A stretch of DNA of 16,836 nt, taken from positions 21,424 through 38,259 of the forward strand of contig JBBSVV010000041.1 in the NCBI GenBank assembly GCA_038046625.1. The letters run 5' to 3'. The translations under genes and the position numbers were made by a program. The DNA is from an archaeon (GTDB lineage: Archaea; Iainarchaeota; Iainarchaeia; Iainarchaeales; Iainarchaeaceae). Below the pieces are notes generated by a model. The model ran no database searches, was not told the origin of the DNA, and saw only the letters and a list, made by a program, of their open reading frames with translations. Below are positions 5,688 through 16,497 of this stretch, piece after piece (position 1 is the first letter of the stretch; every line of letters begins with the position of its first letter).

Positions 5688-5856
5688 CAACCCAAATCAC
5701 CTGTGCGGTGATTTCCGTTGACGGAAAGTGTGGGCAACCCAATCCCCTAACGGGGATTCAGTTGACGGAAGGGCGGGCAACCCAATCCCCTAACGGGGAT
5801 TCAGTTGACGGAAGGGCGGGCAACCCAATCCCCTGCTGGGGGGTTTCCGTTGACGG
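5688..5856. repeat. Tandem array of four 43-47-bp palindromic units
   Basis: Units start at 5688, 5735, 5778 and 5821. Units 2 and 3 are identical (CAACCCAATCCCCTAACGGGGATTCAGTTGACGGAAGGGCGGG). Each unit folds as CAAC-NN-stem-loop-stem-NN-GTTG. The fourth is truncated at the hxlR stop codon. Confidence 0.92.
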
Positions 5857-6536: not shown

Positions 6537-6797
6537 ATGCTGGAAATTCCATTCATTCAGCCGATTCTCGTTCTTTTGCTCGCGGTTCTGCTGATTTATT
6601 TTGCCCTCAAGCTTGGCAAACAACTGGTTCTGCTGCTCATCAACAGCTTCATCGGCCTCGTAATCCTCGTTATCCTGAATTTCCTGCCTTTCGCGAGCGT
6701 GGAAATCAATGTCTGGAGCATACTCATAACCGCGCTCGGCGGAATCCCGGGAATAATCCTTTTGATAATCCTGAGCCAGCTCGGAATAGCGTTCTAA
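6537..6797 (+). CDS. BofA-family (pro-sigmaK processing inhibitor-like) membrane protein
   Basis: LLINSFIGLVILVILN...INVWSILITALGGIPGIILLIIL matches the BofA-family N..G...N...IN......G.PG signature. 86 aa. Confidence 0.8.
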   Translation: MLEIPFIQPILVLLLAVLLIYFALKLGKQLVLLLINSFIGLVILVILNFLPFASVEINVWSILITALGGIPGIILLIILSQLGIAF

Positions 6798-7787: not shown

Positions 7788-7858
7788 GCGCCTGTGGGAC
7801 AATGGTAGCCTTCGACCTTCCCAAGGTCGCGACCCGGGTTCGATTCCCGGTAGGCGCA
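7788..7858 (+). tRNA. tRNA-Gly(CCC)
   Basis: Acceptor stem GCGCCTG/TAGGCGC plus discriminator A. Anticodon arm CGACC-TTCCCAA-GGTCG. T arm CCGGG-TTCGATT-CCCGG. 71 nt, no intron, no encoded CCA, followed by TTTT. Confidence 0.96.
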
Positions 7859-12615: not shown

Positions 12616-12735
12616 ATGACTGTTCCGAAAAAATGCCCCGCGTGCAACAGCTCGCGCATAAAATCCGTTGAAGACAACGGAGCACTCATAATTAAGTGCG
12701 CAAAGTGCGGCTTTGAAAGCAGGAGGAAAGCCTGA
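12616..12735 (+). CDS. Zinc-ribbon microprotein (39 aa); absent from the ORF track
   Basis: MTVPKKCPACNSSRIKSVEDNGALIIKCAKCGFESRRKA has CPxC...CxxCG knuckles. Confidence 0.72.
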   Translation: MTVPKKCPACNSSRIKSVEDNGALIIKCAKCGFESRRKA

Positions 12736-12839: not shown

Positions 12840-12978
12840 TATAGCAGACCACAAAAGTTTTTCGGCATTTATGGTGGTCTGCTAGATAGCACCTGGTGCC
12901 CAATGGGTACTAGGCCTCGTCCCCGTAGGGGGCAAGGAACCATGAAAATCCACCGAATTACTTTATCGGTTTGCTATA
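12840..12978. mobile_element. Twin-hairpin MITE-like repeat, copy A (139 bp including a 46-bp internal insertion)
   Basis: Termini TATAGCAGACC...GGTTTGCTATA. The first 52 nt match copy B (16406-16457) at 49 positions. It overlaps the last codons of pgk. The repeat itself is directly visible; mobility is inferred. Confidence 0.65.
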
Positions 12979-14196
12979 ATTCTTTTCAAGTATTTCAAGC
13001 CCCGGCAATGGTTCCCCTGAAAGGAACTGCAGGAGCGCTTTTCCCGCGAGTGAAACGAAACTAAAGTCCTGCGCAACCAAACCAAAAGAAGTCAAAGCCT
13101 TTTCCGTGTCACCGCCTCCGATGATTGAGTAACAACGATGGAATGCGATTGCTTCCAAAACTTTTTTGGTGCCTACTGCAAAGGCCTTCTTTTCATACAC
13201 CCCCATGGGGCCATTGAAAACAACAACACTGGCGCCCCTAATATGCTCTTTGAAGAGTTCGCTTGTTTCCCTTCCAATGTCCATTGTGTCGAATTTTGAC
13301 GGCAATTCTTTCAACTGGGCTTCTTTTCTCTTGCCGCTATCCCTGGGTTCCTCAATCCCGAAGTCTTTTGCAAGGATAAGTTTTGCGCTGTGCTTTTTGA
13401 GTATTTCCCTTGCCTTGGGCAAGAGCTTGTCAAAGCCCTTTTCCCTGAAGAATTTTTCCTTTGCCCCGAAATCAACGCCCTGCGCCTTCAAAAAAAGTTC
13501 CCCGAACAGGCCTCCAACACATGCCTTGTTGCACAAATTGTTATCCAGCATGCCCTCAAGTAGCGATACCGAATCCGATAATTTTGCCCCGCCCAAAACA
13601 ACGAGCCTGTTTCCGCTGCCCTTGCCGTTCAGTTTATCGAGTGCCTCGAGTTCCCTCTGCAATTGGGGGCCCACCACACAAGGCATGTATTTTTTGAACC
13701 CAACAACTGATGAGTGCGGCCTGTGGCAAACGCTTAGGGCATCCTGCACGAACAGGTCTCCGAGTGGCCCGAGCTTTTTTATTACGGGGTCGTTCGCGTG
13801 CTCTTCCGGTGTTTTATCTTCCTGCTCTTCCTTTATGAAGCGAGTGTTGTCCAAAACAACAATGTCGCCGTTCTCCATGTTTTTTATTTCCGAAACATAA
13901 TCCGCTTCCCACTTCACGAACTTAACAGGCCTGTCAACGAACTTTTTTATGAAATCCGCGTGCCTCTTGAGTTCGATGAATTCCTCTTCGCCCGGCCTGC
14001 CCTGGTGCGAGAGCACAACAACTTTTGCTCCCTCCTCACTCAAAGCATAAATGGTTTTCGAGTGCTCGCGCAGCCTCGAAGAAATTACAACCCTGCCTTC
14101 AACAACGGAGCTGTTCAAATCGGCCCTCAGGAAAACCGTTTTTCCCTTCAAGGGGTAATCGAAAACATTTTTGTATTCCACTTTTGCCCACCGCAT
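12958..14196 (-). CDS. pgk: Phosphoglycerate kinase (archaeal type)
   Basis: RADLNS, SHQGRPG, DNTRF, HR, LGGAKLSD, DIG, NGPMGVYE, GGGDT, LPGLE. An alternative GTG start lies at 14181. Confidence 0.95.
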   Translation of the reverse strand: MRWAKVEYKNVFDYPLKGKTVFLRADLNSSVVEGRVVISSRLREHSKTIYALSEEGAKVVVLSHQGRPGEEEFIELKRHADFIKKFVDRPVKFVKWEADYVSEIKNMENGDIVVLDNTRFIKEEQEDKTPEEHANDPVIKKLGPLGDLFVQDALSVCHRPHSSVVGFKKYMPCVVGPQLQRELEALDKLNGKGSGNRLVVLGGAKLSDSVSLLEGMLDNNLCNKACVGGLFGELFLKAQGVDFGAKEKFFREKGFDKLLPKAREILKKHSAKLILAKDFGIEEPRDSGKRKEAQLKELPSKFDTMDIGRETSELFKEHIRGASVVVFNGPMGVYEKKAFAVGTKKVLEAIAFHRCYSIIGGGDTEKALTSFGLVAQDFSFVSLAGKALLQFLSGEPLPGLEILEKNYSKPIK

Positions 14197-16405: not shown

Positions 16406-16497
16406 TATAGCAAACCACGAAAGTTTTTCGGCATTTATGGTGGTTTGCTAGATAGCAGACCAAAAATGCCGCCAAAATATTTTATTGGTCTGCTATA
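16406..16497. mobile_element. Twin-hairpin MITE-like repeat, copy B (92 bp)
   Basis: TATAGCAAACCAC...GTGGTTTGCTA-GA-TAGCAGACCAA...TTGGTCTGCTATA, giving two 11-bp stems. Direct repeat of copy A, immediately upstream of the gap RBS. Mobility is inferred. Confidence 0.65.

Follow-up and report, generated by a model that had tools for sequence, protein, structure and literature searches.

What kind of event places two different hairpins, back to back, within one arm of another repeat? The question is raised by positions 12892-12937 of the 16,836-nucleotide (nt) stretch of DNA analysed here (the window), which corresponds to positions 21424-38259 of contig C41 in the source genome (G000), a 986-kb assembly of a DPANN archaeon in 57 contigs with a completeness of 84.6%. 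The 46-nt insert at this site interrupts a copy (copy A) of an 89-nt host repeat and consists of two hairpins with no gap between them. Any such pair of abutting hairpins is referred to below as a hairpin doublet, a name coined here. The insert probably belongs to a family of mobile elements that are very small and non-autonomous, the hairpin doublets. A congeneric genome, G001, was fetched whole, and the flanks of every doublet in either genome were mapped onto the other.

Read from left to right, the locus has the order GTGGTCTGCTA GA TAGCA ^ CCTGGTGCCC AAT GGGTACTAGG ^ CCTCGTCCCC GTA GGGGGCAAGG ^ AACC ATGAAAATCCACCGAATTACTTTATC GGTTTGCTA TA, with carets at the ends of the two hairpins. TAGCA (12887-12891) lies directly to the left of the insert and AACC (12938-12941) directly to the right; without the 46 nt, the two join as TAGCAAACC, which is complementary to GGTTTGCTA (12968-12976). 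No flanking base is repeated at the junctions, so that there is no target duplication. Each hairpin has a stem of 10 positions and a 3-nt loop. The stem of the first contains eight Watson-Crick and two G.T pairs, and that of the second, eight Watson-Crick pairs, one T.G pair, and one C.A mismatch. The sequence thus confirms the two 23-nt hairpins, their coordinates, the restored complement, and the lack of a target duplication, all of which had been noted in a preliminary description made from the letters of the window. The same description regarded the insert as a second hairpin element, minimal and distinct from the host repeat in which it is precisely nested, and the filled and empty host copies and the genome-wide relatives of the insert bear this out.

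A genome-wide search for CCT-N7-N3-N7-AGG units, the form in which the element was originally described, does recover other units, yet CCT-N17-AGG by itself shows no enrichment within the window (5 matches, 3.4 expected), so that the case rests on the hairpin family. Among the 354 CCT-N17-AGG words of G000, 20 have at most one unpaired stem position, and most of these share the pattern CCTYGTMCCC-NNN-GGGKACRAGG. This pattern is found 12 times in G000 and 10 times in G001, with no match for the reversed control; the frame of the complete doublet is found 11 and 12 times, respectively, again with no match for the control. The first hairpin of the insert recurs at G000 C18:18628 and C50:18978. 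A looser family pattern has 28 matches in G000, 26 of which lie within 23 doublets, where the partner hairpin is 21 to 28 nt long and follows at zero distance; the remaining two, at C2:963 and C39:14006, lack a partner and have weakly paired stems. With a rule-based scanner, the counts are 21 doublets for G000 and 22 for G001. Eight more were recognized by eye in G000 (C2:3268, C3:62087, C7:34144, C40:2889, C5:62553, C15:13866, C42:8, and C27:8148), the scanner having missed them because of an irregular partner or a contig end, so that G000 contains 21 to 29 doublets of 44 to 54 nt each. Outside the scanner doublets, each genome has 16 family-type matches: all well-folded ones adjoin a partner hairpin or a contig end, and the poorly folded ones are 20-nt look-alikes in coding regions.

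Individual hairpins are 21 to 29 nt long. Each contains a 3-bp foot, an unpaired stem position 4, an inner stem of 5 to 8 bp of almost any sequence, and a loop of 2 to 6 nt. In the commonest frame, (CCTTG-X-loop-X'-CGAGG)(CCTCG-Y-loop-Y'-CAAGG), which also has close variants, the fixed letters are dyad-symmetric about AGG^CCT, and on either strand position 4 is T.G in the 5' hairpin and C.A in the 3' hairpin. This position is non-Watson-Crick in 46 of the 48 distinct hairpins of the scanner set (TG in 19, CA in 19, other mismatches in 8), which was collected with no requirement for such an irregularity; stem positions 1 to 3 and 5 upward are paired. Variants keep the irregularity, as in the studied copy, which has the feet CCTGG..CTAGG and CCTCG..CAAGG and, at position 4, G.T and C.A. 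Over 91 distinct hairpins with 44 distinct inner arms, the inner stems are 97% Watson-Crick, versus 50% when arms are cross-paired between hairpins; this set was partly gathered with a pattern that fixes the feet, and only its inner-stem figure is unbiased. The doublet family conserves its shape, its 5-nt feet, and one irregularity, not the sequence of its stems. Single hairpins and triplets are found neither among the host copies nor at other sites of G000 and G001; host copies carry either no hairpin or two. The mobile unit is the doublet, not the single hairpin.

Six orthologous sites differ between G000 and G001 solely by a doublet of 45 to 54 nt (see the table), and the best alignments of their flanks are 87 to 99% identical. 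No base is duplicated at any of them. At five of the six, the cut falls between AA (TT on the other strand), and at the sixth, in the empty G001 allele opposite G000 C39:14639, it falls at A^G. The bases around the cut are biased (CGA^AG, GCA^AA, AAA^AA), and no single target word emerges. At one of the sites, there is no single-nucleotide polymorphism (SNP) within about 48 nt on either side. Doublets are thus gained or lost precisely and as a whole, with no target duplication and usually between two A residues. Collinear orthologues are missing for 7 of 26 doublets of G000 and 8 of 22 doublets of G001.

Three ready-made explanations for such junctions fail. A core-overlap model for a tyrosine or serine recombinase and a model with a 1-nt duplication both lack a base common to the element ends and the target, and a bulge-helix-bulge intron is rejected by inspection of the junctions, where the last flank bases cannot pair with the 3' end of the doublet.

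Other sites differ between the two genomes by whole host elements, some of them with target duplications of 35 to 42 nt. At G001 C22:5892 and C22:8613, whole doublet-carrying "pseudoknot-hairpin" elements, flanked by duplications of this size, are absent from the corresponding G000 sites (C46:4252-4293 and 6693-6727). At one orthologous site flanking a tRNA gene, the two genomes carry different doublets, which differ in both stems and feet (G000 C40:2889-2939 and G001 C22:20075-20136); this suggests replacement or rapid divergence in place.

The host repeats that carry doublets in G000 are of at least four unrelated types, and a further doublet lies in a solo end hairpin of an element related to the insertion sequence (IS) IS200. 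This last doublet has variant feet, with TCT..AGA in its second hairpin, and splits the stem of the right-end hairpin, whose intact form is known from at least seven IS copies in G001. In other genomes, the flanks of doublets are many and dissimilar. Doublets prefer structured DNA and occupy the loops or junctions of other folded repeats. The common denominator of these sites is a position in or beside another hairpin, with no one fixed geometry, because a closing stem (a flank-to-flank run of at least 5 pairs) is found at only 9 of 66 doublets. The corresponding rate at about 5,000 random control sites is 2.6%; a direct placement on a closing stem is therefore enriched, not general, and was rejected as a rule.

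Nearly identical doublets are found in different hosts: G000 C5:33405 in host C and C48:9584 in host B are 96% identical, as are G001 C33:13373 (host B) and C35:20051 (host C), and G001 C20:11546 (host A) and C23:11729 (host B) are 91% identical. The doublet is therefore a mobile unit of its own. Because its site is empty in G000 and its sequence has a 96% match in another host, the copy at G001 C35:20051 looks like a recent insertion. A doublet that interrupts a canonical IS end hairpin is a derived state, and together these two cases argue for real insertion, not loss alone.

The 89-nt host repeat of the studied copy is itself a miniature inverted-repeat transposable element (MITE) flanked by a TA duplication. 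A MITE copy is present in G001 C24 and absent from the orthologous site G000 C39:5540, which reads AATA^ATTGG, and this pair sets the boundaries of copy A and of its flanking TA dinucleotides. The "TATAGCARACC" double hairpin is found at about 35 loci of G000, many of them at contig ends. In copy B, also in the window, the second host hairpin is uninterrupted and reads TAGCAGACC...GGTCTGCTA. Empty junctions of the form GGTYTGCTA-GA/TC-TAGCARACC occur nine times in G000, next to eight complete filled ones, and G001 has 10 empty and 9 filled junctions; all inserts are 45 to 49 nt long. A further census of insert sizes between TAGCA and AACC, made by pattern matching, is confounded by neighbouring hairpins and was not used.

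Copy A lies at the end of the phosphoglycerate kinase gene pgk (12958-14196, minus strand), which, with GAPDH, neighbours the insert. On the minus strand, the MITE is inserted, with its TA duplication, in the TAA stop codon of pgk (12958-12981), and the protein ends in LEKNYSKPIK, the last six codons (YSKPIK) and the stop coming from the MITE; its relatives end in LEKK or LEKA. The nesting is thus twofold, of a doublet in a MITE and of the MITE in a stop codon. Over 141 nt, copy A plus doublet matches a composite at G000 C50:18914-19054 with 94% identity, and it is 90 to 91% identical to further copies in G000 and G001. From this similarity, the MITE most likely reached pgk already carrying the doublet, whose insertion would then predate the arrival. 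Composite copies of MITE plus doublet spread as MITEs. As single-stranded DNA, the composite copy A is predicted to fold best into a long hairpin whose tip carries three small ones (free energies of -27.4 and -27.7 kcal/mol for the two strands; z = -4.1 and -4.8), and the empty copy B folds as two hairpins (z = -6.2). At another MITE site, G001 has a double hairpin with a doublet (C20:11426-11711) and G000 a single 45-nt hairpin (C14:12627-12822), a difference indicating that the MITE can collapse or expand between one and two hairpins.

How might a unit of this size move? A doublet would do so as folded single-stranded DNA, cut and rejoined by a structure-specific enzyme supplied in trans. 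If that enzyme were a dimer holding one hairpin per subunit, this would explain why the unit is a pair and never a single hairpin. To our knowledge, the "peel and paste" reaction of HUH/Y1 enzymes (IS200/IS605, REP/RAYT) is the only known transposition chemistry with these outcomes, and an enzyme of this type would be the best available model because no duplication is left and excision is precise. Were the excised form a circle, its outer joint (CAAGG^CCTTG) would match the inner one (CGAGG^CCTCG) except in the letters at position 4, which, speculatively, may mark the one cleavable joint.

Searches for Y1_Tnp in G001 return seven matches at E<=0.001 (eight at E<=0.01), mostly at contig ends and with HUH (DHVH) and Y---Q motifs. 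They belong to a multi-copy IS200-type element with a Y1 transposase of about 150 to 165 amino acids, which breaks contigs in this genome. G000 contains only solo right-end hairpins of the IS and a contig that starts just past an IS site, so the element is probably present there and unassembled. The IS end hairpins, CCCAYNNC-TTTA-GNNRTGGG, are set back from the tips of the element; the right end contains ...GGGTAATTCAC, and the element ends in ...TAATTCAC. Y1 matches are found in 8 of 15 doublet-bearing genomes, versus one weak, stop-containing match among 8 genomes without doublets. This co-occurrence is a lead only, as the genomes are kin and the assemblies incomplete. That a Y1/HUH enzyme moves the doublets is possible and somewhat doubtful, and the same has to be said of an enzyme that is neither Y1 nor HUH. 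Still more tentatively, the doublets might represent a novel, structure-defined class of mobile DNA in DPANN archaea, with a unit of 44 to 54 nt made only of two recognition hairpins, excised and pasted between two adenines of exposed loops. The enzyme would then be either an IS200-type Y1 enzyme with a second, hitherto unrecognized specificity or one unlike the known types of transposase. In that case, the invariant unpaired position 4 would mark the cleavable foot of the hairpin and so keep the pair together. Such an element would be an archaeal, spacer-less counterpart of the bacterial REPIN discussed below and one of the smallest transposable units known.

Several observations weigh against enzyme-driven mobility of the doublets. 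No transposase tied to the doublets was found, so that, of the cassette-inserting enzyme proposed in the preliminary description, the precise insertion stands and the enzyme itself stays an inference. Searches of G000 gave no match to Y1_Tnp or TnpB, and 7 of the 15 doublet-bearing genomes have no Y1 match. Outside G001, no doublet is on the same contig as tnpA; in G001, none is near one; and no tnpA flanked by doublets is found among the genomes examined. The CCTTG frame extends to the very tips of the doublet and has no likeness to the IS ends, and the guide/linker geometry of IS608 cannot apply as such to a doublet, which has neither linker nor guide segments. Near the junctions of some of the six indels, there are a few SNPs at distances of up to 8 to 11 nt, as expected from gene conversion. 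The direction of change, insertion or excision, is deduced from an unrooted comparison. Finally, pgk was not found in G001 with the query used, and the orthologous site of the studied copy cannot be compared.

Gene conversion between paralogous host repeats can indeed account for part of the pattern of filled and empty sites. Taken further, the doublet would be an optional segment of multi-copy host repeats, passed on or removed by gene conversion or template switching, with no transposition of its own. All six presence/absence cases lie inside multi-copy host repeats that have filled and empty forms, SNPs cluster within about 10 nt of the junction in several of them (for example, AACCGCC at G000 C39:14639, GACCACC in G001), and the studied copy has spread as a composite. 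Even so, this explanation is unlikely: near-identical doublets (91 to 96%) sit in hosts with unrelated flanks, one doublet lies inside a solo IS200 end hairpin, dozens of different flanks are seen across genomes, and one indel is free of nearby SNPs on both sides. Entry into each type of host, moreover, requires an insertion independent of homology.

The doublet could also be a selected transcript module, a pair of protein-binding RNA hairpins that does not move. The strong covariation, the conserved frame, and the wobble-type irregularity (U.G in the 5' hairpin and C.A in the 3' hairpin on either strand) would suit such a role, as would the location of doublets at gene ends and beside tRNA genes. 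The six differences between congeners, however, and the presence of doublets in unrelated repeats and inside an IS end make it quite improbable. The dyad-symmetric frame, in which the strands are alike, fits DNA better than a strand-specific RNA, and there is no match to an Rfam family.

The preliminary description had proposed fixed-length 23-nt cassettes added in unit steps, a model suggested by the equal length and geometry of the two units in the studied copy. It is very improbable: in the two whole genomes, there is no host copy or other site with one or three units, hairpins and doublets both vary in length, and the two hairpins form a single dyad-symmetric frame with outer ends CCTTG and CAAGG and the centre CGAGG^CCTCG.

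Seven public DNA runs from two studies each contain at least half of the words sampled from the locus; no RNA run is among the public runs that contain it. Unitigs from these runs extend over the left junction (12873-12938, 12873-12920, and 12862-12931) and over the right one (12902-12962). Support for the junctions, which the preliminary description proposed to check in reads, is obtained for both sides and is partial, as no unitig reaches 31 letters or more from a junction in both directions. Among the unitigs placed on the site, none skips the insert as an empty allele of this locus would, and the loose ends that continue as the empty form of the repeat are most simply other genomic copies. 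An assembly or binning artefact, although numerous copies of the host repeat and some of the doublets are located at the ends of contigs, has a negligible probability, since the composite is present in unitigs of four runs from the two studies and in several independently assembled genomes of the family.

As mobile elements, the doublets resemble the repetitive extragenic palindromes (REP) and the REP doublets forming hairpins (REPIN), which, like the domesticated transposases associated with them, are regarded as bacterial. As described in PMC3116915 and PMC6006769, these are likewise doublets of short imperfect inverted palindromes, singlets not being the unit; compensatory changes keep the hairpins, and the elements are extragenic, multi-copy, non-autonomous, and precisely excised. 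For REPIN and bacterial interspersed mosaic elements (BIME), of all known elements the nearest in kind to the doublets, PMC3116915 gives evidence of this sort too, for the doublet as unit, for compensatory hairpin change, and for precise excision. However, the doublets, whose heads are CCTTG and CCTCG with no GTAG, lack the conserved GT[AG]G tetranucleotide that heads a REP (PMC6006769). With zero spacer, a doublet makes two separate hairpins, whereas a REPIN makes one long hairpin, and its 44 to 54 nt compare with a spacing of 71 bp between the end 16-mers of a GI REPIN (PMC3116915). A flanking single-copy REP-associated tyrosine transposase (RAYT) is not found with the doublets, the Y1 enzymes of G001 belonging to the multi-copy IS200 type (Y---Q) with end hairpins of its own. 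Unlike REP and REPIN, doublets are often nested in other repeats. Archaeal Y1 enzymes are of the IS200 type only, with none of the RAYT type, in the survey of PMC6006769. By analogy, the doublet would be an archaeal counterpart of REPIN, and a duplication-free hairpin pair in Iainarchaeia would extend REPIN-like single-strand mobile DNA to the archaea.

The doublets share with IS200/IS605 elements and their miniature derivatives a hairpin at each end, precise gain and loss, and the lack of a target duplication, and Y1 genes are present in the genus. The miniature derivatives go by the name of palindrome-associated elements (PATEs). The resident IS, however, has end hairpins that differ from the doublet frame, and the doublet lacks linker and guide segments. 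It is targeted to an AA dinucleotide, and bases are conserved to the left and to the right of the cut, in contrast to IS608, whose target is a word of 4 to 5 nt on one side only. Classical MITEs are likewise small, non-autonomous, and multi-copy, and differ by the target duplication (TA in the case of the host repeat) that the doublet lacks. The inverted terminal repeats (ITR) of adeno-associated virus (AAV), which form T-shaped hairpins, and the attC sites of integrons are recognized as folded single-stranded structures with unpaired bases. In its predicted fold, copy A likewise bears two hairpins of about 9 to 10 bp with 3-nt loops on the end of a longer stem, and the doublet would be recognized in the same way, by structure and not by sequence. 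The likeness is one of shape only, and there is no sequence or genomic relationship.

A literature search on hairpins in Iainarchaeum found no paper, the titles and opening lines of abstracts retrieved on DPANN or archaeal miniature inverted repeats contain no earlier description of hairpin doublets, and this family of elements from ultra-small groundwater archaea is apparently new. The doublet is among the smallest mobile units seen. With its frame of 5-nt feet and its free inner stem, it is a very small, sequence-tolerant substrate for finding the enzyme, and the six filled/empty pairs are ready-made test substrates. Doublets also account in part for the mosaic of repeats at which assemblies of these genomes of about 1 Mb break.

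The family pattern is found in 7 of 41 relatives, all of the same family, and the doublet frame in 15 of 23 genomes of that family, with no match for the reversed controls in either case. A public scan with one genome per species gives at least 112 loci (113 matches). Among the matches listed, 49 of the 113 fold as two hairpins, and all 49 are in records with archaeal titles, mostly Iainarchaeum/Diapherotrites but also "archaeon", one metagenome-assembled genome labelled Micrarchaeota, and one labelled Thaumarchaeota. The other 64 matches listed do not fold in this way; 60 are bacterial, which fits chance, and 4 are archaeal and fail the strict fold rule, at least one of these four (L114) being a real doublet. 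The viral contigs scanned for the doublet frame contain no match.

Table. Coordinates of the studied doublet and its host MITE (window positions), of the types of host site, of the filled and empty orthologous sites, and of the IS200-type element (genome, contig, and position); carets mark insertion points.
Feature	Location	Strand	Length or sequence	Basis or counterpart
Left TA of the copy A target duplication	12840..12841	.	TA	Filled/empty pair G001 C24 vs G000 C39:5540
Host MITE copy A, hairpin 1	12842..12884	.	TAGCAGACCAC - 21-nt loop - GTGGTCTGCTA	Inverted repeat; 94% identical to copy B
Host MITE copy A, whole	12842..12976	.		Filled/empty pair G001 C24 vs G000 C39:5540
Central GA and the 5' portion of the host hairpin 2 arm, ending at the insertion point	12885..12891	.	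GA + TAGCA	Sequence and empty junctions elsewhere in G000
Doublet hairpin 1	12892..12914	.	CCTGGTGCCCAATGGGTACTAGG; 23 nt, 10-bp stem, loop AAT, G.T at stem positions 4 and 7	
Doublet hairpin 2	12915..12937	.	CCTCGTCCCCGTAGGGGGCAAGG; 23 nt, 10-bp stem, loop GTA, C.A at position 4, T.G at position 6	Member of the CCTYGTMCCC-NNN-GGGKACRAGG family
Remainder of host hairpin 2	12938..12976	.	AACC - loop - GGTTTGCTA	Minus strand: last six pgk codons and TAA stop (12958-12960)
Right TA of the copy A target duplication	12977..12978	.	TA	TA duplication of the MITE family
Host MITE copy B, without doublet (empty reference)	16408..16495	.		TA at 16406-16407 and 16496-16497
Host A, MITE			TAGCA^AACC (= GGTT^TGCTA)	
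Host B, "pseudoknot-hairpin" element			CTATCT^TCGC..CTCGATAG	Downstream of the CAACAG..CTGTTG hairpin
Host C			CCCCTGCT^TCGCAGGG	
Host D, triplex-type repeats at tRNA 3' ends				Doublet between hairpin and third tract
Host E, solo end hairpin of IS200-like element	G000 C5:62553-62597		GCCCA^CGCC..GGGTAATTCAC	
Filled site	G000 C3:36583-36636		54 nt; GAAAAGAAA^AAGCTG	Empty at G001 C28:4902^4903
Filled site, host A	G000 C39:14639-14686		48 nt	Empty in G001 C24, reading TAGCAGACC
Filled site	G001 C35:20051-20095		45 nt; CTATGCGA^AGCATAG	Empty at G000 C5:11385^6
Filled site	G001 C43:110615-110659		45 nt; CCATCT^TCGCC	Empty at G000 C50:26148^9
Filled site	G001 C29:170-219		50 nt; ACTATCT^TCGCC	Empty at G000 C3:16849-53
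Filled site, host A	G001 C14-end + C42-start (joined by inference across a contig break)		45 nt	Empty at G000 C7:30848
IS200-type element	G001 C12:1350-2100, C5, C16, C6, C33, C40, C41, C32:13600-14300			
End or site traces of the IS200-type element	G000 C6:1-66, C53:11237-11273, C3:28979-29008, C31:5951-6265, C36:7767-7800			

Rfam covariance models at gathering scores and ARAGORN find nothing at the insert site, and the sole Rfam match in the window is tRNA-Gly at 7788-7858. No small-subunit rRNA gene was found in the G000 assembly. A single gene for a tyrosine recombinase of the Phage_integrase/Xer type is present in G000 (C41:19772-20257, about 1.2 kb upstream of the window start, E = 1e-49), and G001 has two. 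Just upstream of copy A, a 39-codon open reading frame on the plus strand (12616-12735) would encode a small zinc-ribbon-like protein with two CxxC pairs. Positions 5692-5856 of the window contain a tandem array of 3 to 4 units of about 43 nt, each combining the word CCGTTGACGG with a GC-rich hairpin, AATCCCC-TAAC-GGGGATT. The sequence next to the solo IS200 end, at G000 C5:62400-62540, has a similar motif.

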